A stretch of 64,000 bases of DNA, taken from NCBI GenBank assembly GCA_951406725.2, contig OX597831.1, positions 26,722,001-26,786,000 of the forward strand, written 5' to 3'. Under the pieces are notes generated by a model. The model had not been told where the DNA came from. It worked only from the letters and a program-made list of their open reading frames with translations, and did not search any database. Of the stretch, positions 1,239-61,654 are shown piece by piece (the first letter of the stretch is position 1; each line of letters begins with the position of its first letter). A program made the translations under genes and the position numbers. Origin of the DNA: Octopus vulgaris (Eukaryota).

Positions 1239-1393
<155 letters not shown>

Positions 1394-1727
1394 TATATGC
1401 GCAATTATTACATGTGAGTTTAGTCGCCAATTCTCTGTGTTTCTTTGAAACCTTATATTTTTTACAAGGCTCAATTAGGGGAAGAAGGACCAACGCCCAT
1501 GAACTTTTCAGGGTCTCAGCATGTGGTAAGAGGAAGGAAGATATTCCCAAACAAGAACCCTGGCTCCAAAGAGCTTGCAACGGACTGAAACTGGACTCCC
1601 TTAAAGGCACCATGACACACAATGACCAGATGGTGGTGGCAGTGGTGGTGGTGGTGGTGGTGGTGGTCGTGGTGGTGCTGGTAAATGTGGATCACAGTGG
1701 CGTTCGTGGCTGTGATAGTGGTGATGA

Positions 1728-1758
<31 letters not shown>

Positions 1759-1773
1759 GGCGGTGGCGGTGGT

Positions 1774-2310
1774 GATGATGATGGTGGTAATGGTGATGAT
1801 AGCGATGATGGTGATGATGGTTGCGGTAATAGATGGTGAGGGTACTGGTAGTATTGGTAGTAGTAGTGGTGGTGGTGGTGATGGTGTTTGTGATATTGTT
1901 GATGGTGGTGATGGTGGCGGCGGTGGTGATGATGATGGTGGTAATGGTGATGATGGCGATGATGGTGATGATGGTTGTGGTAATAGATGGTGAGGGTAAT
2001 GGTAGTATTGGTGGTAGTAGTGGTGGTGGTGGTGGTGATGGTGTTTGCGATATTGTTGATGGTGGTGGAGGTGGGGGGCGGTGGTGGTGATGATGATGAT
2101 GATGGTGGTAATGGTGATGATAGCGATGATGGTGATGATGGTTGATGGTAATAGATGGTGAGGGTACTGGTAGTATTGGTGGTAGTAGTGGTGGTGGTGA
2201 TGGTGTTTGCGATATTGTTGATGGTGGTGGTGGCTGTGGTGATGATGATGGTGGTAATGGTGATGATGGTTGTGGTAATAGATGGTGAGGGTAATGGTAG
2301 TAGTGGTGGT
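1774..2310. repeat. Higher-order tandem repeat (about 4 units of about 130-170 bp) built from GGT/GAT/GTA microsatellite
   Basis: The marker ggtaatagatggtgagggta recurs at about 1825, 1979, 2146 and 2274. Confidence 0.8.
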
Positions 2311-2854
2311 GGTGGTAGTGGTGGCGGCGGTGGTGATGGTTTCGGTGGCAGGGGTGACGGTGCTAGTGATGGTGGTGATGGTGTTATTTGTGGTGGTAGT
2401 GGTGGTGGTATTGGTTGTAGACCGTGCGACATTATGTTTGGCCTGTTGTCAAAAACGGACATTACTTTTTTTTTTTGTAATCTAGATGACGTACTCCGCA
2501 TCGTAAATAAAATGTACAAGCGTCTACTAAGAATCGAAACCCGATCACTGTTTCCACTGGCTATACACTTTAGACTTACCAGTTTCTCTAGAGAAGTCGT
2601 CGCTGTACTCCCCCTCCCACATACACTTAGTTTTGTAATTACACACATTCCCGTAGTCCATCCTCATTCATCCTCACCTCCGTCCTTTACCCTTCGCCCC
2701 CACCCCCTCCCGCCCCTGCCCCGCCACCCAGGAATCAGTTCTATCCGGTTGTGTAGAATTTCTAGGAATGTTTCAGATGTTCTTCTGAAAGTTTGTCGAT
2801 CATTAATGAGGAGTGGAGGGGGTGGGGGCGGCACTGACATCAACAACTACAACA

Positions 2855-2893
<39 letters not shown>

Positions 2894-3099
2894 GCTACTA
2901 CTACCACTACTACTACCACCATCACCAACACAACAATCACCACCACTACTACTACCACCACCACCACCACTTCTACTACCACCACTACCACCAAAACCAC
3001 TACTACTAATACTATCGATTCTACTACTAATAGCAACAACAACAAAAATAATAATAATAACAGCATCACCAACGTAAACAACATCAGAAACATGAACAC

Positions 3100-3182
3100 A
3101 AAAATAGCAACCAAATCACCCTCAAATCACATGCTACCGTCGTAAGAAAATGAAGGATACATTGGATAATGAGATCGTAGTC

Positions 3183-3216
<34 letters not shown>

Positions 3217-3305
3217 TGTGTGAAAGAGAAAGATTGGATGGTTACGGTTCGAATACAGTTGATCATTGGCCTGTTTGATCAAATCTGTCTCGGAGTTAAA
3301 TAAAA
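3100..3305 (+). mobile_element. Old dispersed repeat (SINE/LINE tail), family F
   Basis: aaatagcaaccaaatcaccctcaaatcac...ggatacattggataat...ttgatcattggcctg; related copies at about 4135-4500, 7020-7100, 19420-19565, 26400-26575 and 28060-28230 (-). Confidence 0.6.
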
Positions 3306-3315
3306 AATTTACAAT

Positions 3316-3479
3316 AGGCGCAGGAGTGACTGTGTGGTAAGTAGCTTGCTTACCAACCACATGGTTCCGGGTTCATTCCCCACTGCGTGGCACGTTGGGC
3401 TTTTGTCTTCTACTATAGCCTCGGGCCAACCAAAGCCTTATGAGTGGATTTGGTAGACGGAAACTGAAAGAAGCCTGTC

Positions 3480-3521
<42 letters not shown>

Positions 3522-3847
3522 AAGACACCCTTCGGTCATGAATGACCATGGGATTGCACCTAGAAAGTTACCCTCCTAGACACAAGTCCGGGCAAGGTTG
3601 TTTATGGAAGGCCAGCAGTCGCCCATGCATACCAGCGTCCCCTCTCCACGCCACCAGTGTTATCCAAGGGAAAGACAAAGGTCGATACAGCTTGGCACCT
3701 GTGACGTCGCAGCTCATTTCTACAGCTGAGTGAACTGGAGCAACGTGAAATAAAGTGCCTTGCTCGAGAACACAAAACGCAGCCCGGGATTCGAGCTCAC
3801 AACCTCACGATCGTAAGATCTACGCTCTAACCACTGAGCCATGCGCC

Positions 3848-4130: not shown

Positions 4131-4582
4131 TATAGTCTTTAAAAAGGAAGGACGCATGAGATAATATAACCAAATATACACTGAATGAAAAAGGCGGAAT
4201 GGTCATGGTTGTAATGGTTTTGATCATCAACACCACTGAGTCAAGGGATGTCTTGAGGTAAGTAATATCAACACCAGCCGTGTGATCTTCCAGTTGTCGT
4301 CCAGCTCGGAAGAAATAGCAGTCAACTCTCCCGCAAATCACACGCTATCATCTGAAAAGAAGTGAATGACATCGGATAACGGGATCGTAGTCACAGTGTG
4401 TTTGTAAGAAAAAGACGAGATGGACACGGCTGGAATACGTTTGGGCATTGGCTTGTTCGATCAGGTCTGTTTCAGGGCCAAGTATCAACGACAACAACAT
4501 CTAGGATAACAAGGGACCCTCTGTGAGATCTCCTTCACTTACATCTACCGTCTTAAACTGGAAGGAGACAGCGGACAGTGTA

Positions 4583-5153
4583 TTGCTAGGCGCAAGAGTG
4601 GCTGTGTAGTAAGTTGCTTGCTTACCAACCGCATGGTTCCGGGTTCAGTCCCACTGCGAGGCACCTTGGGCAAGTATCTTCTACTATAGCTCCGGGCCGA
4701 CTAAAACCTCGTGAGTGGATTTCGTAGACGGAAACTGATTGCTAGGCTCAAGAGTGGCTGTGTGGTAAGTTGCTTGCTTGCCAACCGCATGGTTCCGGGT
4801 TCAGTCCCACTGCGTGGCACCTTGGGCAAGTGTCTTCTACTATAGCTCCGGCCCGACTAAAATCTTGTGACTGGATTTCGTAAACGGAAACTGAAAGAAG
4901 CCTGTCATGTACATGAGTGTGTGTGTTAGTGTATCTATATTTGTCCCCCCCACCACCACCACCACCACTATCGCTTGACAACCGATGTTGGTATGTTTAC
5001 GTCCCCGTAATCTACCGGTTGGGCAAAAAGAGACAGATAAAATAAATACTAGGCTCGCAAAGAATACGCCCTGGGGTCGATTTGTTCGATTAAAAGGTGG
5101 TGCTCCAGCATGGACGCAATCAAACGACTGAAACAAATAAGGGAATAAAAGAA
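4583..5153 (+). mobile_element. Family B SINE with tandemly duplicated 5' head
   Basis: The head ttgctaggc(g/t)caagagtggctgtgt..cggaaactga occurs at about 4583-4737 and again from about 4739, followed by a complete tail. Confidence 0.85.
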
Positions 5154-5319
5154 TGAAGGAATATATATATTGTAACTACATGTGGATCGTTGGCGATTTT
5201 TTCCCTCCGTCTTCCTTTTCTCTTCCTCTTTCTGGAGAAGAGCGTCAGCTAATACTTTGCATTACCACGCCCTCGCGTTGTTGTTTTTTTCATGTTTTTC
5301 TTCGTTTTTTGGGGGATCA

Positions 5320-5359
<40 letters not shown>

Positions 5360-6290: not shown

Positions 6291-6592
6291 TACATACTTC
6301 TAATATAGGATAAGATGTTTTCCAAAAAAATTCCGTCAACGTGACCAGCTTATTAATACCTTTAAAGGTGAAAATTATAAACAATGGCAAAAGAAAAAGA
6401 TTTCTATGCCAATATGCTGAGAATAGACTTTAATCCTATAGCAAGCTTCAGTACACGTGTGACTGTCACGAGGCTTGCTATAGGATTTTACGTTTAGATA
6501 TAACTGGGGTACTTATGTGTACACATGACTCTTGCATCTACTTTTTTTTTTTCTTGGGTGCTTGTAAGTATTTCATTTATTTCTTATCGTAT

Positions 6593-6651
6593 TCTCTACT
6601 GAAGAGGGAAAATTCCGTGGGATTAATCCCGAAATTGATTCAATATAGAGA
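6593..6651 (+). ncRNA. Canonical type I hammerhead ribozyme
   Basis: tctcta CTGAAGA GGGA..17 nt..TCCC GAAA ttg att caa TA tagaga: intact CUGANGA/GAAA/UH core and all three helices pair. Confidence 0.85.
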
Positions 6652-6809
6652 TAACGGATTTTTTAAAAGATTCTGTTCGCTTGCCTTCCTCGATTTCAGC
6701 ACGACGTGTATTCATGGTGAATGTATATTGTAATGTGGTGATTGACGATTTAAAGTCTCTTCTCAGCATATTGGCATAGAAATCTTTTTTCTTTTGCCCT
6801 TGTTCATAA

Positions 6810-7012
6810 TTGTGTGACTGCGTGAGCATCGTTGGCGATTTTCTTTCTCCGTCTTCCCTTCCTTGGACTTTTCCTTTTTCTGTTTCTGACGAGGAGCTCC
6901 GCTCGAAACGTTAAATCCTCCTTTCTTTCCTTTCCTGAGCGTCCAATAACACTATACTTGTTCCACGTCCTCGCGTTGTTGTGTTTTTTCTTTGTTCATG
7001 TTTGGATTAACT
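6810..7012 (+). mobile_element. About 200-bp hammerhead-bearing element, family E (Penelope-like pLTR or retrozyme-like); motif at 6882-6916
   Basis: gttt CTGACGA g GAGC tcc GCTC GAAA cg TT aaat; ends in (TA)n. A deleted copy lies at about 5180-5322. Confidence 0.75.
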
Positions 7013-7144
7013 ATATATATATATGACTGGAATGTCAAGGCTAGATTGCCTTTGATTATATAGTTCAATCCTTGCTGACCTGGGGTTAAATAACAAAAAT
7101 GCTAACTGCGACCCAGCTATTACGACTAAAATAACAATTATTAC

Positions 7145-10942: not shown

Positions 10943-11660
10943 TCACAACAACAGTACTTTACGCAATATGTATGCTGTTTCAAGTAATGCCGACTTTTGC
11001 AATACGCTTAGATTGTAGGGTACTTCTAAAGTTTCCAGATGTTTCTTCAGATTGGATGGTATTGAACCCAATGCTCCGATGACAATAGAGATAACCTTTA
11101 TATTTGACTCTCGTAGCTGCCATATCTTGGTGATCTCAATTCTCAGGTCTCCATATTTATCGATCTTTTCTCTTTCTTTCATGATGATATGTTGATCTCC
11201 TGGCACTGCCACGTCGATTATTAGGCACTCTTGTTTGTCCCTCTTAAAAGTTACTATGTCCGGCTTTTGGTGCTCTAATACCTTGTCTGTCTGAAAGTCA
11301 AAGTCCCACAGAGTTTTTGCCTTCCCCTTTTCGTCCATTATCTTTTCTGGTGTATGTTGATACGAAACACCCATTACCACTCATCCATACTTTCGGCATA
11401 GAAGCCATTGAAGGTTCTGCGTTACCTTGTGTCTGCGCTTCTACTCTTTCTGCACAAGACTTTCACAAGCACTGACAATGTGAGCCCTCTTCCCACACAT
11501 TCTGCAGAGGTTCGTTGCACTTGTGTAGTATATATCTCATTTCACTACGTTGGTATTCAATGCCTGATCCTGGGCAGCGATGATTAGGCTTTTAGTTTTC
11601 TTTTTTAGGTCACCCTTGTTGCTGAGCCACCCCCATGATGCTTCCTGATCTTTTAAGTTG
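10943..11660 (-). pseudogene. Non-LTR retrotransposon 3' fragment, R4/Dong-type: CCHC knuckle plus restriction-like endonuclease
   Basis: IAAQDQALNT, CRMCG..HIVSAC, LWDFDFQTD..KPDIV..IIDVAVP..EKIDKY..IGALG; frameshifted. Confidence 0.85.
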
Positions 11661-11803
11661 TTATATATATATATATATGGGTACAGGACGTCACCAACTG
11701 TGCAAATAACATGAAACGCGTAAACAAACGAGGAAAAAAACGAGTGAAATACGTAAACAACGAAAAAAAATTGGAAGACTGGGCAACTAAACACAGAGAA
11801 AGG

Positions 11804-11913
11804 ACCCTTCATCAGTTGTCGGCTGTCTATCTACTGCTCATTTCGAGCATTCAATGACAATATGAGTCTTCAAAAACAGTTGCTCCCTTAAATTCTAAAA
11901 TAAAATTTAGGAT
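11804..11913 (-). ncRNA. Candidate non-circularly permuted hammerhead ribozyme, inside a dispersed element at about 11680-11980
   Basis: Minus strand: GAGCA a CTGTTT ttgaaga CTCA TA TTGTC attgaa TGCTC GAAA TGAG cagtagat AGACAG cc GACAA CTGATGA. All core nucleotides are present in a rearranged order. Confidence 0.6.
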
Positions 11914-11979
11914 TTTTGAGAACAAAAAAAAAATGACAGTAGAGACATACAAGGAAACTGAACACATTCCCAAACGTAA

Positions 11980-12190
11980 CTACATGTGGATTGTGAGCGA
12001 TTTTTTCCTCCGTCTTCCTTTTCTCTTGGACTTCCCTCTGCCTCCTGTTTCTGAAGAAGAGCTATGCTCGAAACGTAAAACACCCGTTCTTTCCTTCCCT
12101 GAGCGTCTTATTAATACTTTGCATGTGCTTTTTATCGCACGCTCACACGGACCCCTCCCCCGTCCTTCCGACTGGCTTTGGAGCACCTAG
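11980..12190 (+). mobile_element. Family E hammerhead-bearing element; best-preserved motif at 12046-12082
   Basis: tgttt CTGAAGA a GAGC tat GCTC GAAA cg TA aaaca. Confidence 0.8.
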
Positions 12191-12435
12191 TACTACCATT
12201 TCGAGTGACTCCTTTGATTGATCAATGAAAACTTTACATCTGAAAGAACCCGTTCTCGTCAGATGACCGCATAGAATTCAAATATAAAGGATACCACCAC
12301 TGCTTTAACATATTCACTTCAATAATGGAACTCAAAATATTTACATTGTTTCTGTTGTTATATCTCTAACAGAAGTGACTCAATTTAAGTACCTAAGTCA
12401 ACAGAATCCTAATTATAATTGTATGTATGTTTATG

Positions 12436-12490
<55 letters not shown>

Positions 12491-12919: not shown

Positions 12920-13113
12920 ATGATGGACCGTTAGCTCCTACACGCATTTTTTTTCTCTCCTCTTTCTTTTCTGTATATCTTTCTGTCGAAGAGCGTAGGC
13001 TAGAAACGTAAAAGACTTGTTCTATTTCTATTCCTGAGCGCCATACTAATACATTTGCTTGTTTGTACTCCACCTGCCTTCATCTTTTGTTTATTTTCGT
13101 AAACCTTCCCGTT
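12920..13113 (+). mobile_element. Family E element, subfamily with CTGTCGA core; motif at 12978-13015
   Basis: tcttt CTGTCGA a GAGC gtag GCTA GAAA cg TA aaaga; closely similar to 37412-37602. Confidence 0.75.
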
Positions 13114-15249: not shown

Positions 15250-16200
15250 GATTTTTGTGTGAGCGGGCAGTAACCCGTTGTCAGAGGTCTCACAATTATA
15301 AGCTTTGGTACTTGGTTGTTAATTATCGTGGAAGACATTCAACATCCAAGTACCAATCTCAAAATCCTAGCTGTCACCAGCCGAGAGTCTCTTGGGCTTG
15401 CTCTGCTCTCATGTCAATTCCGATTTCCCTGACATATTTCTCGAACTTGGTTAGCTGAGTTAAGTTAAGTTAATTTTTTGGCTCAAAAAGCAAAAAGCAA
15501 GGCCATGTAGGGGGACATGGAGTTATGTACAGAGGTGTTCATGCAAAGAATTCAGGCCATTTCTGGTCAAGAGAGACTTTGAACCGAGCGGTCGTCGGCA
15601 TCTTCACTATCTCGTCCGGCAGCTTATTCCACGGATCCGCAACCCGGACGGAGAAAGCCCCTCTCCTTCAATTGAGATGAAATCGTCGCAGATAGAGCTT
15701 TTCGGAGTGACCCCGAGTGCTCCGAATGCCCCTACAACTATTGGAATGGCAGACACTCTCTTCATAGTCCACATTCTTGAAATTTCATCGTTTAATAGTC
15801 TGTACTATCTTTTCTAGTTCTTTGTCACTAATGCGTGCATCCCCAGTTATTGCAATATCTATTGGTTTCCTTTTTCCTTTCATCTACCACAACAATGTCT
15901 GGTCTTCGAGCATCATTTAAGGAATGATATTAGATTGTAAAATCCCACAGTATCTTATATTCGTTGCTCTCGGCGACTCCTTCGGGTTCGTGTTCGTACC
16001 ATTTCCTTACTCTGTCCAGGCCGTACTTCTCACAAAGCTTCCAATGACGAAACTTACCCACGTTACCGCGTTTCCTTTTGTAGTGCTTTTGAGCCAGCTT
16101 CCTAAACTCGCTCATAATATATAAGATTGTTTCGCTTTTGCTGCCACACATCCTACAAAGGGGCAATTCGCTCCTCTTGTGTATTTGAAACTTAGTGTAA
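15250..16200 (-). pseudogene. Second R4/Dong-type RLE LINE 3' fragment, split by a CR1 insertion
   Basis: LCRMCGSKSETILYIMSE..HWKLCEKYG..WYEHEPEGV..KILWDFTI..RRPDIVVV; resumes after the insert with KFEKYVREIGIDM..TARILRLVL. Confidence 0.8.
15458..15715 (-). mobile_element. CR1/L2-group LINE 3' end with (TTAAC)n tail
   Basis: GHSEKLYLRRFHLN*RRGAFSVRVADPWNKLPDEIVKMPTTARFKVSLDQKW matches the typical CR1 ORF2 C-terminus. Confidence 0.85.
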
Positions 16201-16204
16201 ATAA

Positions 16205-16806
16205 TTCCCAGAGCTTGTTCCAGAGCGATAGGACGGATCCGGCTATCAGCTGAATCCATAGTGAAGATTGCCCCGCCGACCTCCTTTAACCGGGAGGGCA
16301 AGGCAGTTTTCCTTTGCCTAGTGGCTGTAGCGAAAGAGGTTGTATGGTGGACCCGTTTGAAAGGGCTAAGGTCAGACACTTTCCTCTTTGGCCCAGGCCT
16401 CATCAACCTTTTCAAGTTTCACTTGAAAAGGAAGGTGAGAGTAGAGAGGGAAGTGCTGTCCGATAGCAAGTTTTCTGAAAGGTGGATAAATGTCGCAAGA
16501 ATGGCCAGTATGAAAGGAGCCATTCTGAGGTTACACCTGTGATTTAAAAAGGTAACATAAAAGGAAAAAGGGGCTCTCTACCCACCTTTTGACCAGGCTC
16601 CCGTAGCTTTTATGGGTTTTTTCCACCAGGAACCTTTCGAAGCGCCTCCCCCTATTGGGAGTTTTTCGTTGTTAAAATTTTTGATTGTTACACTGTTTTT
16701 ACTCGTTTTTTTCACAAACGGACAAAACCCTTTGTAACCTTCCGTCCTGTTTTGTCCCTTTATGTAATGATTGATTTTTGTCATCCCTTGTGGCCAATAA
16801 AAGAAT
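16205..16806 (+). pseudogene. L1/Tx1-like LINE 3' end (ORF2 C-terminus plus 3' UTR)
   Basis: FLCLVAVAKEVVWWTR..FKFHLKRKVRVEREVL..FSERW; T-rich UTR ending ccttgtggccaataaaagaa. Confidence 0.65.
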
Positions 16807-20580: not shown

Positions 20581-20654
<74 letters not shown>

Positions 20655-20656
<2 letters not shown>

Positions 20657-20843
20657 CCTCGTGTGTACCGCTGACGATTTTTTCCTCTGTCTTCCCTTCT
20701 CTGGATCTTTCCTTCTCCTATGTTTCCGACGAAGAGCTCCGCTCGAAACGTTGAACCCTCCTTCTTTCCTGAGCGTCCAATAATACTATATTTGTTCCAC
20801 GTCCTCGCGTTGTTGTGTTTTTTTTGTGTTTTCTTGTTTGGAT

Positions 20844-20850
<7 letters not shown>
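20655..20850 (+). mobile_element. Family E element in (TA)n; motif at 20722-20756
   Basis: gttt CCGACGA a GAGC tcc GCTC GAAA cg TT gaac; (TA)n on both sides. Confidence 0.8.
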
Positions 20851-20898
<48 letters not shown>

Positions 20899-21299
20899 TT
20901 GTTTATCCAAGGGGAGGCAATAGGAGCAACAACCACAGGAATACCACAAAATTCAAAGATAGACCAAACACATGCAAATCTTATATACTAGTTTATATCT
21001 ATACAGTCCGACACATTAGAAATTTAAAATTCAGTAATATATAAGTATCATATACAAATAAGAATATAAATACAAATATAAATATAAAAAATATAAATAT
21101 AAAAATAAATATAAATATAAATTTTGCATATAACACGCTTAAAACTGTTAGAATAAGAGGAATAAATATAGTGATAATAAAATAAAAATATAGCATATCA
21201 AGACACGAGTAAAATTCCGGCGAATAGTACATAAAATATACATACAAGCTTACAAAAATATAAGATATACATATCTTATATTTTTGTAAGCTTATATTT

Positions 21300-22545
21300 T
21301 CTAAGCACTGTTGGAAAGGCCTCTGCTTGCATTATCCTGTCCAGGCTGCAACTGCTTGCTTCTCGAATTTATCCAGAATCGCAGTGTGGCTTTAGAAGAA
21401 ACATATCAACTATTGACATGATATTCTCCATACGCCAACTTCAGGAGAAGTCCAGAGAGCAAAAAATGCCATTATATATGGCCTTCATTGATCTGACAAA
21501 GGCCTTTGACTTGGTAAGTAGAAAAGGCCTCTTCATCCTGCTCCAAAAAATCGGATGTCCACCAAAGCTGCTGATGATCATTACATCTTTAAATGATGAT
21601 ATGCAAGGCACCATACAGCACAATGGTTCAACATCAGGCGCCTTCCAAATAAAAAATGGGGTAAAGCAAGGTTGTGTCCTTGCTCCTACATTATTTGGCA
21701 TCTTCTTCTCGCTGCTGCTGTCACATGCCTTTGTGACATCAGATGATGGAGTGTTTCTGCACAGAAGAATTGATGGGAAACTGTTCAATCTCTCGCGTCT
21801 GCGTGCCAAGACCAAAATCAGAAGCGTCCTGATCAAGGAGATGCTATTTGCTGATGATGCCGCTCTGGTATCACACACAGAAGAAGCCCTACAAAGGCTC
21901 ATTAACTGTTTTGAGCAAGCATGTGGCAACTTTGGCTTAGTTATCAGCCTCAAGAAGACCAACATCATGGGTCAGGCTACATCGACCATCCCAGAATCAT
22001 GTCCCCAACAAAGATGTCCTCAAGCAAGCAGGAATACCAAGCATGTTTACACTCCTCACACAAAGACGTATGAGATGGCTTCGACATGTTAGCCGTATGG
22101 AAGATGGCAGAATCCCCAAAGACATACTCAACGGAGAGCTTGCTAGGGGCACTAGGTCTGTGGGAAAACCGTTCTTACGATACAAGGATGTTTGCAAAAG
22201 GGACATGAATGCCTGCAACATGAATATTACCAACTGGGAAGCAGTTGCCAGCAACCGTGGAGATTGGCAACGTACCGTAAAAGAGGGAACACAAAGGAGT
22301 GACATAGAGGGAGAGAGGAGAAATGGTAAGACAAGAAAAGACGTCAACAAGAAAGTATGACATTACAACCAGCCAGGCAAAGTCTTCGCTTCATTTGCGG
22401 CACCTGCCAGAGGGAGTGTTTGTCCAGGATAGGACTACACAGCCACAGCAGGAGATGTATTAGGACATGAAATGTAAAAGCCGGACTAGATTATTTTATC
22501 CGCAACTCCATTGTCTCCCGAGACAAAAAGGATGCCAACAACAAT
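21300..22545 (+). pseudogene. RTE-clade LINE, 5'-truncated: reverse transcriptase, internal deletion near 21995, C-terminal Cys/His motif and 3' UTR
   Basis: PESQCGFR..TIDMIFSIRQLQEK..AFIDLTKAFD..GVKQGCVLAPTLF..LFADDAAL; RMRWLRHVSRMEDGRIPK; FICGTC..RIGLHSHSRRC; tail ggatgccaacaac. Confidence 0.92.
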
Positions 22546-33914: not shown

Positions 33915-35190
33915 TTAAATAATTGTCGCCACATTATATTTTTAATTTTGCGCATGCGCATTGTTTTTCTTTTCTCGTCTACACAGTATATTAGGGTCAG
34001 TTGGGCACCGTCTGTGAGAAAAAACAGCACCATGACGCAATTCACTCTGCCAGAAATTTTGAAATGATATGCTGTACTGCTTGGCATTCACTTCAGAAAC
34101 TCCAATACGAACATTTCAGAGTGTTTGGATGTCAATCTGAGGACAGTGCAGAGGATTCGGAAAGAGTTGGATGAGTCTAATGGTGATTACGAAAGTACGG
34201 CAGCTCGGAAAACTCACTCCGATCATTCTGAAAAGAACTCCTGGATTTGTTGGTGAGATCCAGGCCAAGATTGACAACGATCCCTCCAAGCCAATCAGGT
34301 CCATCGCCAGGGACATGGCAGTGTCTGAGTTTCTTATCAGGCAGGTAGTGCATGAAGATGTTCGGTATTCCTCATACAAGGCGAGAAAGGGCCAGTTTTT
34401 ATCGCAAGCCATCAAGGACAAGAGGAAAGACCGTGCCACGAAGCTTTTGAATAAACTCAAGCATCCCCTTCAACTGAACATGCTTTGGTTTTTCTCAGGC
34501 GAGAAAAATTTCTGCCAGGATCAGATGGTAAACACACAAGACAACCGTTGGCTTGCCGTGTCCCCATATATGTGCCAAGAGTGATAAAAATCAAACATCC
34601 AGTCAATATCAGTGGTGTTTGGAGTGATCACTCGTGATGCCAACGTTATACCTCCATTCATCTTCTCACGTGGCCTCAGACTCCATACGGAGGCCTACAT
34701 CATGTACCTGGAGGTGGGGTAGTGCTGCTCTGGATCAAGAGGCAGGCTGCTGGAAGACCCTATGTCTGGCAACAGGACTCTGCACCATACCAACACAAGC
34801 AAAGAACCCAGTCATGGCTGTCAATTTCCGCGACAACATCACCCCTAACATCTGGCCACGTAACTCCCCAGACTCCCCCTTCATTATTATGTGTGGGGTG
34901 CAGTTGGGTGAGAGACCAACAAAACTCTTTGTAACACGAAAGATAAACTGAAAGCAAAAATTATGGCAGCATTCACCAACTTAAACGAGGAGACTATCCA
35001 GAAGAGTTTCAGGAGATTCTGAAGTCGTCTGGAGGCCATGGTTGAAGCCAATGATGATTTTATAGAATAAATTTACTCTTTAGTATTTCAAAGTATTTTT
35101 ATGTAATTTTGGTAAATATATCTGTTAAAATGGGATATCAGTTTTATTTTCATTTCGCGTAATTTAGACGATAATTTATTCACCGCACCA
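33915..35190 (+). pseudogene. Tc1/mariner-superfamily DNA transposon, decayed transposase (maT/DD37D-like by motif appearance)
   Basis: IDNDPSKPIRSIARDMAVSE..WFFSGEKNF..VWQQDSAP..WPRNSPD; partial TIR match ataattgtcgcc / gacgataatttatt; frameshifts. Confidence 0.85.
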
Positions 35191-37411: not shown

Positions 37412-37602
37412 GCCATGATAGATCGTTAGCTCCTACACGCATTTTTTTCTCTCCTTGTTTTTTTCTGTGTATCTTTCTGTCGAAGAGCGTAGGCTCGAAA
37501 TGTAAAAGACTTTTTCTATTCCTGAGCGCTATACTAATACATTTGTTTGTTTGTACTCCACCTGCCTTCGTCTTTTGTTTATTTTCATAAACTTTCCCTT
37601 CA
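37412..37602 (+). mobile_element. Family E element; motif at 37472-37509
   Basis: tcttt CTGTCGA a GAGC gtag GCTC GAAA tg TA aaaga. Confidence 0.75.
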
Positions 37603-39842: not shown

Positions 39843-40415
39843 TCGGCGAGCTGGCAGAAACGCTAACACGCCGGGCGAAATGCGTAGCCGTATGTGGTCT
39901 GCCGTTACGTTCTGAGTCCCAGGTCGACTTTGCCTTTCATCCTTTCGGGGTCGGTTAAATAAGTACCAATTACGCACTGGGATCGATATAATCGGCTTGA
40001 TCCGTTTGTCTGTCCTTCTTTGTCCCCTCTATGTTTAGCCCCTTGTGGGTAATAAAGAAATAGGTATTTCGTCTGCCGCTACGTTCTGAGTTCAAAATTC
40101 CACCGAGGTCGACTTTGCCTTTCATCTTTTCGGGGCCGATTAAATGAGTACCAGTTATGCATTGAGGTCGATGTAATCAACTTAATCCATTTGTCTGTCC
40201 TTGTTTTCCTCTCTGTGTTTAGCCCCCTGTGGGTAGTAAAGAAAATAGGTACTTCGTCTGCCGCTACGTTCTGAGTTCAAATTCCGCTGAGGTTGACTTT
40301 ACTTTTTATCCTTTCGGGGTCGATAAATTAAGTACCAGTTGCGTACTGGGGCTGATCTAATCGACAGGTCCCTTTCCGCCAAAATTTCGGGGCTTGTGCC
40401 TAGAGTAGAAAAGAA
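39843..40415 (+). mobile_element. Head-to-tail array of three family A SINE bodies
   Basis: Units 39843-40041, 40042-40247 and 40248-40415. Units 2 and 3 restart at ggta(t/c)ttcgtctgccgctacg, and the last has the second tail type. Confidence 0.85.
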
Positions 40416-43594: not shown

Positions 43595-43599
<5 letters not shown>

Positions 43600-43800
43600 T
43601 AATTCAAACATGAAAGCACAAAAAAAACACAACGCGAGGACGTGGAACAAATATAGTATTATTGGACACTCAGGAAAGAAGGTAAGAAGGAGGGTTTAAC
43701 GTTTCGAGCGGAGCTCTTCGTCGGAAACATAGGAGAAGGAAAGATCCAGAGAAGGGAAGACAGAGGAAAATAAATCGCCAACGGTACACACGCGGTCACA
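43595..43800 (-). mobile_element. Family E element in (TA)n; motif at 43694-43728
   Basis: Minus strand gttt CCGACGA a GAGC tcc GCTC GAAA cg TT aaac. Confidence 0.8.
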
Positions 43801-55203: not shown

Positions 55204-55578
55204 TAGTTTTATTTTTATAGCGTGCTTTCACTTCACTACCGAGCGCAGCTCTGTGTGCCTTAGGTATGTGCTGTGATTTGTTGTGATGCTCTGATGGTTA
55301 TTGTATGGAAAGCGTTCTGCGTAGGATGTGTACAGTGCCTAGTAGTGCAATTTTCTGTATGTTATATGTGTTTGTAAGTCCTGGTGTTTTTGTTATGTAT
55401 TTGTCTGAATATTTTTTTATTATGCCTAATGCACCTATTATGATAGGAATTGTTTCTGTTTTTAGATTCCACATTCTGGTTACCTTTATTTCCAGGTCTT
55501 TGTATTTTGAAAGTTTCTCCATTTCTTTTAGAGACACGTTGTCATCCGCTGGTATTGATACATCAATTAGGAAACATA

Positions 55579-55580
<2 letters not shown>
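55201..55580 (-). pseudogene. R4/Dong-type RLE LINE 3' end inserted in (TAA)n
   Basis: CFLIDVSIPADDNVSLKEMEKLSKYKDLEI..IPIIIGALG..IQKIALLGTVHILRRTL*; (ATT)n on both sides. Confidence 0.88.
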
Positions 55581-55654
<74 letters not shown>

Positions 55655-56256
55655 GATCATTATTATTACTGTTATTATTATTAAGGCGGCGAGCTGACAG
55701 AATCGTTAGCATGCCTGGTTAAAAGCTTATCGGTAATTCGCCCGTCGCTACGTTCTGAGTTCAAATTCTGCTGGGGTCTACTTTGCCTTTCATCCTTTCA
55801 GGGTCGATAAATTAAGTACCAGTGAAACATTGGGGGTCAATGTAATCGAATATCCCACCTCCTCGGCAATTTCAAGCCTTATGCCTATCGTATAAAAGAT
55901 TGCTATTATTTTTGTTTTTCTTTTTGTGTATATGTGTGGTCCGTGTGTGTGTCCGTGTGTGCTGTAACCCATCCTTCGATAATGTCCTCCATGTCTTGGG
56001 CCCTTGTGGCCAATAAAAGAAATCATTATTATCATTGTTGTTGTTGATGATGATGATGATCATCATCATCATCGTCATCATCATCATCATCATCATGGTG
56101 GTGGTGGTGGTGGTGGTGGTGATGATGATCATGGTGATGGTGCTGACGATGATTTATTGGCACTATTACCTAATATGAGTGCCTACTTTTTCTGACTCAT
56201 TGACGTTTAGAAAACTATACACACGCACATGTACGTGTGTATATATAAATATATAC

Positions 56257-56841: not shown

Positions 56842-57162
<321 letters not shown>

Positions 57163-58438: not shown

Positions 58439-58622
58439 CGGAGTAAACACATAAATGTGAAACAAGGTGGAAAAAGAGTACTCAAATACCAGTGGTAGAG
58501 TAATATGCTTTATTTTAAGCAGAGAAAATTCAACAAAATCTGTTACCGATTTCTCGTTGCCGTTCAACGAACGGCAACGAGAAACTAGAGTATTTTGTTG
58601 AATTTTCTGCTGCTTAAAATAA

Positions 58623-58681
<59 letters not shown>
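58377..58681. mobile_element. (TA)n-flanked fold-back insert (Penelope-like end) inside the gag zinc knuckle
   Basis: Inverted arms 58510-58565 and 58569-58622, centred on ttctcgttgccgttc aac gaacggcaacgagaa. Confidence 0.65.
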
Positions 58682-58682
<1 letters not shown>

Positions 58683-60742
58683 GGCATTTTGGAAAACTTT
58701 GTCGGAGCAATGCAGTAACTGTGACACACAAAAATGATAAATACGATGTACATTTGACAGTATCAGCATCAGCAGGTTCACCATTCCGAGTAACCTCCAT
58801 GGTTATTCTGAACAATACTTGCAAAACCGAAGCATTAATTGATTGCGGTAGCACTGAGTAGAGTTTCATCAGTGAGAAGCTAGTGAACATACTCAATATC
58901 AAAACAGTCAAATCGAAGAACATCATTGGTATGACTTCTGCATCTCTTTCTGTGGAAACCAAGGGATACTGCACTGTTTCACTAACCCAGGATAATCAGA
59001 TGTACTATAATGTGACACTGTACGTCCTCAGAAACTTGTGCACTGACCTAATTCTGGGAACTGACTTCCAAGAACAGCATGAAAGTATTACCATACAATG
59101 CGGAGGACAGACACTACCATTAATGTTTACTGCGCTAACAGCTATGAAAATTGATCCCCCAAAGCTATTCGCACATCTCCAGAAGGACTGTAAGCCTATT
59201 GCTGCCAAATTGCGAAAATACTTGGAACGTGATCGAGAGTTCAAGACGGAAATACGCCGCCTAGCAGATGCGAAGATTATTGAGCCCAGTAATTCTCCTT
59301 GGAAATCACAAGTGCTAGTTGTTCGAGAAAAAATCTAAGCGAAGAATGGTGATTGTCTATTCAGAGACAATTAACAAATATACACAGCTTGATGCCTACC
59401 CTTTTCCTAAAATCGATGAGTTAGTAAACACTATTACCCAATATATCGTCTACAGTACTATAAACTTACGTTCAGTATACCATCAAATTCCTCTATCAGA
59501 GAAGGATCTTCAATACACTGCCTTTGAAACTGATGGTAAATTATGGCAGTATACCAGGATGCCATTCGGAGTAACTAACGACATGTTTCCAACGTTTAAT
59601 AGATGACTTTGTGAGTAAATACAAGCTGCGAGATACGTTCCCATTCATAGACAATTTAACTATATGTGAGAAAGATCAAAATGACCTCGATAAGAATTTA
59701 TAAAAATTTGAAATGGCAGCAAAAGGTGAAGAGATTACCATGAATGAAGAGAAATGCGTTTACTCAACGACTCTAGATTTTCTTGGATACCGTGTCTCAT
59801 ACAATACCCTCAGCCCTGACCCAGAAAGGCTTGCTCCACTCCTCAATCTTCTTACACCAAACAACCAGAAATCATTAAAACGTATATTCGGTATGTTTTC
59901 TTATTATGCTAAGTGAATCTCCAAATTTTCTGACAAAATATATCCTCTCAATAACGTATCAAAAATTTCCTCAAACAGCCAACGAGTAAAAGCATTTGAG
60001 TCATTGAAGATAGAAATAAGTACTGATGCTGTTATTCAAACGGTAGATGAGAATATTCCATTTTCTGTTGAGACGGATGCTTCGGACTTTGCTATATCTG
60101 CAACACTAAATCAAGATGGAAGACCAGTCGCGTTCCTTTCTCGCACGCTACAAGGTAACGAACAATACCACTCCTCTGTTGAAAAGGAACCCAAGCAATT
60201 ATCGAATCAATTCATCATTGGAGACACTTTCTTCTAGGTAGACATTTTTACATTAATTACTGATCAACGTTCTGTTGCATTCACTTATAATTGTAAAGCA
60301 ACGAGCAAAATTAAAAATGATAAAATCACAAGATGGCGCATTGCGTTATCTCCATACGCATATGATAATCACTATCGCCCAGGATCTAATAACATCGCTC
60401 CGGATGCATTCACTAGGGTACGCTGTTCAGCAATCAGTTCACATTCACTTAGTCATCCTGGTGTAGTACCCTTCGTCATTCTGATCGTGGAACTGCCTTT
60501 AAGCCTACACAATTGAGAAGATGGCTCCTTAATAAGGGCATTGCAAGAAGGAGGACAACAACGTACAATCTCACTGGGAACAGTCAAGTTGAAAGATATA
60601 ACGGTACTCTTTGGTAATCAGTACTACTCTCTTTGAAAACTCGTGCCTTCCAATATCTTCTTGGGAAACAGTTCTTCCAGATGCGCTGCATTCAATCAGA
60701 TCTCTGCTTTGTACGTCCAACAACGCTTCTCCTCATGAATGT

Positions 60743-61048
60743 GGAGGCACATGTCCTAGTGGTTAGAGCAGCGGACTCGCGGTCGAAGGATCACGGCTTC
60801 GAATCTCAGACTGGGCGATGTGTGTATTTATGAGCAAAACACCTAAACTCCATGCGGCTCCGGTAGAAGGTAATGGCGAACTTCTGCTGACTCTTCCGCC
60901 ACAACTTTCTCTCCCTCTTTCCTCCTGCATCTTGCAGCTCACCTGCGACGGACCGGCGTCCCGTCCAGGTGGGGAAACTATACGCCAAGGAAACTAGGAA
61001 ACCAGCCCTTCTAAGCCAGGCATGCCTCGAGAAAGAACAAAACAACAA
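60743..61048 (+). mobile_element. Family D-headed SINE with an alternative tail, (AAC)n end and 14-bp TSD, inserted in integrase
   Basis: CTCCTCATGAATGT at 60729-60742 and 61049-61062. Confidence 0.92.
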
Positions 61049-61654
61049 CTCCTCATGAATGTCGCTTTAACCATCAAAGACGTTCAGCTGCAGGAACATC
61101 TATGCCATCATGGCTTCTCAACCCAGGACCTATGCTTGTGCAAAAGAACAATCACACTAGCAAGTATGACCCTATCGTTGACCAAGTTGATTTAATCGAA
61201 GCAAACCCCCTACACGCTCAAGTTCGTTACCCAGACTGTCGCGAAACAATTGGCATCAGCGGGAAAAAATTAACCCTGACATTTGTCGTCCATCAAGAGT
61301 CAGACAGAGATCTAATTGACATGTCTTCACTTCCTAGACATAAACCTCTAAAACAACATGAAGAATCCCCTCAACTGCGTCGATCTCAAAGAATTCGGAA
61401 AGCCCCCGGAATCTATAAATTCTTTTTCTTTTTAAAGTGGGAGTAAATGGTATTCAAATTGTGCTATGATTTGAGTGATTTTCCCTTGATATAAAGGGAA
61501 TGTGTATTTGATGATCAGAGAGAGAAAGAGTGACCGTTTTGAATAACATAGGTTGAATCAAGAATTTTGTGAATAAGGCTATGACGCTTTACAGTTTTGG
61601 ACTATGACTGGAAATTAGTTTCTTTGAACCAGGAATTACTATTCATACATAACA

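Follow-up and report, generated by a model that had tools for sequence, protein, structure and literature searches.

A short repeat family with minimal hammerhead motifs, probably a terminal module of Penelope-like elements

The window analysed here, a stretch of DNA of 64,000 nucleotides, contains eight copies of a short repeat, family E, seven of which have a hammerhead-shaped core. Our best explanation, to which we assign a probability of roughly 0.8, is that family E represents the terminal module (pLTR or 3' end) of endonuclease-bearing Penelope-like elements (PLEs), most likely of the Neptune type, in the form of short stand-alone copies. It is based on the anatomy of the copies, on three subfamilies with 5' starts of their own, on (TA)n at the 3' end, on high abundance and on the occurrence of this core in other animals, downstream of genes for PLE endonucleases, while a PLE partner of family E in its own host is presumed. 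Against this explanation, five of the seven cores deviate from the consensus, and the anchor copy, at 12046, has neither the 3' end nor the (TA)n. The family is real, but the type of motif is already known from the PLEs of many animals.

Seven hammerhead cores

A preliminary description of this DNA had listed seven hammerhead-shaped cores, and all seven are present where it had placed them, starting at 6882, 12046, 12978, 20722, 37472, 43694 (minus strand) and 56992. Copies are named here after the position of C3, which is 6886, 12051, 12983, 20726, 37477, 43724 (minus strand) and 56997, respectively. Each copy bears out the claimed order of stem I, a 7-nt core box, an extra purine, GAGC-loop-GCUC, GAAA, CG, U, H and stem I'. 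In the anchor copy, the parts are arranged as follows:

12046-12082, forward strand: anchor minimal hammerhead with a canonical core, cut predicted after 12077 (GUA)
12046-12050 and 12078-12082, forward strand: stem I
12051-12057, forward strand: core box CUGAAGA
12058, forward strand: extra A
12059-12062 and 12066-12069, forward strand: stem II
12070-12073, forward strand: GAAA
12074-12077, forward strand: CG-U-A

A relaxed structure scan of both strands of the window recovered six of the seven motifs and no others; copy 12983 was missed because G10.1-C11.1, the pair that opens stem II and is intact in the other six cores, is broken. The same scan yielded a mean of 0.05 matches in block-shuffled windows (n = 20), and an IUPAC pattern for the form with a three-nucleotide loop gave 4 matches in the window versus 0 in 100 shuffles. 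No ninth copy was detected when a profile of the eight copies was run on the window, the next match having an E value of 3.3.

The extra nucleotide that separates position 9 from 10.1 is A in six cores and G in one. The palindrome at 15.2-16.2, which has no loop III, reads ACGU in six cores and AUGU in one, and the claim that helix III consists only of the ACGU palindrome holds for the former. Stem I is 4-5 bp long in all seven cores, with one two-sided change, and the covariation claimed for this stem comes down to a G-C to C-G swap in subfamily B versus subfamilies A and C, the only pair that covaries. There are no compensatory changes in stem II in the 7-row alignment, in which 94.8% of the 77 stem cells are paired, compared to 19-43% when the partners are slid; the observed level was matched by 10 of 500 shuffles. 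Folding of whole elements gave probabilities of 0-0.15 for stem I and 0-0.69 for stem II, values that are not used as support, and a dimer cannot be modelled.

A search of the window against Rfam yielded microsatellite matches, with the hammerhead family absent among the matches listed (150 of 426), and the segment 11950-12430 gave four weak matches, none of them to a hammerhead. The Rfam result is neutral, neither for nor against a hammerhead motif. The motif pattern had no match in viral contigs. GACG of the core box can also pair with CGUU at the cleavage site, giving an alternative monomer hairpin at 6886-6912, 20726-20752 and 43698-43724, and local folding suggests that this pairing would further block the monomer in subfamily A. 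In the related metagenome loci described below, the coral-type motif can form a longer hairpin, CUGACG/CGUCAG.

Anatomy of the elements

The copies fall into three subfamilies: A (6886, 20726, 43724), B (12983, 37477, 56997) and C (12051 and the deleted copy at 5171). Their extents in the window are:

5171-5322, forward strand: subfamily C-like deleted copy, remnant CUGGAGA-A-GAGC at 5232-5243, (TA)n on both sides
6813-7013, forward strand: subfamily A element with a canonical core (CUGACGA, at 6886) and an extra G, ends at a short (TA)n
11975-12122, forward strand: subfamily C element with the anchor motif, 3' part divergent or missing, without a (TA)n end
12920-13112, forward strand: subfamily B element with an A6U core (CUGUCGA, at 12983) and A in place of C11.1, (TA)n at the 3' end
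20654-20848, forward strand: subfamily A element with a U4C core (CCGACGA, at 20726), embedded in (TA)n
37415-37602, forward strand: subfamily B element with an A6U core (at 37477) and U in place of C15.2, (TA)n at the 3' end, 5' flank unique
43597-43800, minus strand: subfamily A element, U4C core at 43724, 3' (TA)n, TA-rich 5' flank
56950-57125, forward strand: subfamily B-like element with an A6U core (CUGUGGA, at 56997), flanked by (GATA)n and (TA)n

The six full copies are 176-201 bp long with the motif near the middle. The deleted copy, which had been suspected at about 5180, is real: it spans 152 bp and has lost 42 nt relative to copy 12051 between two GAGC words. In the anchor copy, the match to the family extends over only about 147 bp and is followed by divergent sequence. 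The segment beyond this point (12123-12438) ends at a (TA)n array; no other match to 12121-12420 was found in the window, nor any Rfam match of note up to 12430, and the segment could be either a longer subfamily or flanking DNA.

Starts at the 5' end are shared within subfamilies (3 of 3 copies in A, 2 of 3 in B and 2 of 2 in C). In the six copies that have both a full start and an intact core region, C3 follows the start after 61-75 nt. That most copies abut (TA)n was borne out, since the 3' end does so in seven of the eight (chance per position 0.011), the exception being the anchor copy. Three copies have (TA)n or something close to it as their 5' flank, two have a different simple repeat, and in three the 5' flank is unique sequence. 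Microsatellite targeting, as proposed earlier, is plausible, with (TA)n at most 3' ends and a pure or near-pure (TA)n 5' flank in only three of the eight copies. No target-site duplication was seen next to the ends of the seven copies examined. Identity between subfamilies is 81% in the core and 51% in the flanks (Fisher P = 0.003 for one independent A-B pair), a contrast that is inflated because the copies were chosen by their core. Runs of at least four T occur 2-5 times per aligned copy, the first of them upstream of the core. All eight copies are single, and the window contains no tandem E units.

Copy 6886 is adjoined by a 439-bp MITE-like segment (6373-6811) whose 62-bp terminal inverted repeats agree at 93.5% and which has an 18-bp hairpin inside (6432-6487); the segment is present once in the window and has no PLE coding match. 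An inverted, truncated PLE copy was considered for this place and rejected, the inverted repeat there being without E sequence, and no PLE remnant was detected at 6297-6812 by six-frame translation and the PLE profile described below.

Association with Penelope-like elements

Metagenome contigs were scanned for exact matches to the core, which gave 98 loci, apparently of animal DNA, with long flanks available for 80. The scan pattern fixed the core and stem II, and their conservation in the 98 loci is therefore by construction. For stem I, which lies outside the pattern, 28 of the 56 distinct contexts have at least 3 bp, 17 have two and 11 have fewer. One locus, L019, contains a near-intact open reading frame for a PLE reverse transcriptase with a GIY-YIG domain in two frames (1375-3627, minus strand), the closest named homologs of which are from fishes. 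We built a PLE profile from homologs of this product, of which 74 were found and 62 were of suitable length and used; 42 of these 62 have a CX2-5CXXC linker. The products of L019 and of a second locus, L052, both from other animals, combine the linker with a GIY-YIG region. This linker is a feature that Nematis shares with Neptune.

The PLE profile matched 9 of the 98 loci, and in eight of the nine the match is on the same strand as the core and upstream of it; its end lies 79-266 nt away from the core in seven loci and 659 nt away in L019. Two of the eight (L010 and L030) look like one locus, which leaves about seven independent positives, and in the ninth the match is about 4 kb away on the opposite strand. 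The other 89 core-bearing loci had no match to the profile. Similarity between the elements in the window and the metagenome loci is confined to the core, and no PLE coding sequence was found in the 64-kb window (best domain E value 0.058; tblastn empty at E 0.01). There is good support for the proposal that the element depends on Penelope and has a hammerhead of the dimer type, with the reservation that the link to PLEs comes from other animals and that the window itself lacks PLE coding sequence. PMC8557442 cites the hypothesis that insertion of Neptune PLEs is biased by their linker to microsatellites or (TA)n, and integration of family E at or near (TA)n would fit it.

Core variants and abundance

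Only two of the seven cores (6886 and 12051) have a canonical CUGANGA box, while each of the other five has one change. The preliminary description had noted CCGACGA (U4C) twice and CUGUCGA twice, which is correct as far as it goes but undercounts A6U, which is present in all three B copies, once as CUGUGGA. Public data with the sequence of copy 20726 came from 4 organisms and 8 studies; none of the data sets was listed as RNA, and run X1 is RNA only by conjecture. Assembled contigs from four public runs were used, of which 20,233, 6,013, 3,412 and 3,159 fell on this subfamily A copy. The family is clearly very abundant, although the depth is not a copy number. With copy 20726 as the reference, the U4 allele accounted for 22-27% of the depth in all four runs and C4 for about three quarters, whereas C-to-T or G-to-A changes at the four neighbouring CpG positions tabulated made up 1-6%, indicating that both alleles are at the level of subfamilies and that C4 predominates in sequences with at least 80% similarity to copy 20726. 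The G at 20753 is private to copy 20726 (A in 98-99.7%) and restores a Watson-Crick first pair of stem I. A search of the contigs for head-to-tail joints listed none apart from one backward joint in one contig and is uninformative, since the 3' 40 nt of the copy were skipped as repeat.

The U4C and A6U changes of the subfamilies are the only feature of family E that goes beyond the published consensus. They may represent a simple loss of constraint in non-autonomous copies. A more speculative reading, which we think rather unlikely, is that the hammerhead fold serves SINE-like parasites of PLEs as a handle by which the Penelope reverse transcriptase recognises them, and that cleavage has been selected against; on this reading the most successful subfamilies would have fixed changes that weaken catalysis, U4C (most A copies) and A6U (B), while both stems, the extra purine and GAAACGU are kept. 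If true, this reading would amount to a direct test of hammerhead function in PLEs. High-copy subfamilies that consist of the pLTR only and have natural core variants would be a convenient set for asking whether cleavage or the fold matters in mobilisation.

Alternative explanations

Still within the PLE reading, the copies could be heavily 5'-truncated inserts or solo pLTRs for which full-length PLE RNA was the source and synthesis stopped at a favoured point, and not a separate non-autonomous family. We consider this possible though doubtful: most solo motifs are taken as truncated PLEs in PMC4209133, and four independent related loci have only 79-89 nt between the end of the endonuclease match and the core, near the 61-75 nt start of the full E copies, but random truncation would scatter the 5' ends, which coincide within subfamilies, and none of the eight copies retains upstream coding sequence. 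It is improbable that the copies are monomers of non-LTR retrozymes that spread via self-cut circular RNA from tandem arrays. Retrozymes are described as PLE-derived, with solo monomers included (bioRxiv 10.64898/2026.07.22.740005), and the size is of the right order; yet every copy in the window is single, the ends are fixed and not permuted, lying away from the cut site, and most E cores are weakened.

Far less probable still is an origin as a Pol III SINE, or as a passenger of a microsatellite-targeting LINE, in which a B-box-like word mimics the hammerhead. The word in question, GCTCGAAAC, is one letter off what we take to be the B-box consensus, and a remnant that we presume to be Dong/R4-like (10943-11830) adjoins the anchor copy. 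These points are opposed by the T runs, which would stop Pol III and begin before the core, by the lack of tRNA genes in an ARAGORN search, by the lack of any match between LINE remnants and E copies among the BLAST matches listed, and by the full hammerhead geometry, which is not expected by chance at 0.05 matches per shuffled window. The same segment at 10943-11830, together with 15930-16418 and 55298-55705 (minus strand), presumably represents Dong/R4-type LINE fragments with a restriction-like endonuclease.

Other repeats in the window include a LINE reverse-transcriptase remnant at 21235-22362, about 400 bp downstream of copy 20726, which has homologs with PF00078 and which we take to be RTE-like. 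The best matches to a LINE reverse transcriptase of the window were 58-73% identical, and the repeat landscape presumably resembles that of octopus genomes. Broken pol fragments at 58589-61446 (protease, reverse transcriptase and RNase H-like stretches) are presumably LTR-retrotransposon-like, and we assume that the fragments at 34141-34951 come from a Tc1/mariner-like transposase. Repeats other than family E are duplicated head to tail at 4582-4894 and 39921-40348 (periods of 156 and 185), and neither duplication contained a motif by the relaxed hammerhead scan.

Proposed route of mobilisation

If family E is a PLE terminal module, its RNA would come from Pol II or from read-through, since Pol III is ruled out on the ribozyme strand by the T runs inside the element. 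An autonomous PLE would supply a reverse transcriptase/GIY-YIG protein that binds this RNA, nicks at or near (TA)n and copies the RNA from its 3' end; alternatively, the (TA)n could be a tail added during insertion. The inserts have fixed ends and span the cut site, reaching about 75-100 nt to its upstream side and about 85-100 nt to its downstream side, which suggests that the template RNA was uncut. Because helix III (ACGU) forms only between two motifs, solo copies should be nearly inactive, and cleavage, if any, would take place in tandem PLE transcripts.

Comparison with published hammerheads

The preliminary description had framed the motif as unusual, which is not supported. In Cervera & De la Peña 2014 (PMC4209133), one more nucleotide after A9 (before 10.1), a helix III that is palindromic and lacks a loop, and abundant solo copies are standard features of the minimal hammerheads (min-HHRs) of PLEs. 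The G10.1-C11.1 pair of these is conserved and their 15.2-16.2 palindromic, and they sit in PLE terminal repeats and in many solo copies in many animals. The earlier comparison with the CChMVd viroid is thereby superfluous. The consensus in the supplement consists of a U-rich flank, CUGANGAH, G...C, GAAAN and NUH, and the examples include molluscs and a Neptune element of Acropora digitifera, GCU CUGACGAA GGGC UAAC GCUC (GAAA) CGUC AGC, which is nearly the motif seen here, with 4 differences from copy 6886 between C3 and U16.1, loop length apart. The same source reports no cleavage of a monomer and low cleavage of dimers and trimers, and a review (PMC6765202, citing Lünse, Weinberg & Breaker, RNA Biol 14:1499) states that small PLE hammerhead variants cleave as dimers.

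As to precedents for U4C and A6U, text matches to CCGA (2) and CUGU (3) in the accessible text of supplementary file 2 of PMC4209133 do not lie in a core. No published hammerhead family of this type in octopus or other cephalopods was found in a partial literature collection; for octopus, if that is the host, 31 recently active Penelope-like families are described in PMC13282606, in the accessible text of which the word ribozyme is absent. By itself, the result matters little, as a further case of an animal in which minimal hammerheads of PLEs are abundant. The role of hammerheads in endonuclease-bearing PLEs is described as unclear in PMC8557442.

Among known systems, the CChMVd (+) hammerhead has a known extra A in the core, and in a viroid U4C is a natural variant that is weaker but tolerated, while A6C is reported as slow, according to PMC3376415 and PMC3088659 (the latter for U4C and A6C); unlike the viroid ribozymes, which belong to infectious plant RNAs, family E has no loop III and is found in animal DNA. 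With non-LTR retrozymes it shares a non-coding, short sequence, a type I hammerhead and a probable PLE derivation, whereas retrozymes are defined by tandem units, which are absent from the window, and the ends of family E are fixed off the cut site. The very short palindromic stem III, the probable PLE association and the predicted dimer requirement liken it to the dimer-cleaving PLE variants as summarised in PMC6765202. The closest resemblance in published detail is to the PLE min-HHR, likewise type I and mostly solo, with a U-rich 5' flank, CUGANGA plus an extra nucleotide, GAAA-CG-U-H and a stem I of 4-5 bp, and its 4-bp stem II is like that of the Acropora example; compared with the min-HHRs in the accessible part of PMC4209133, family E is set apart by U4C and A6U at the level of subfamilies, by the absence of an ORF-linked copy from the window, by fixed 5' boundaries and by (TA)n at the 3' end.
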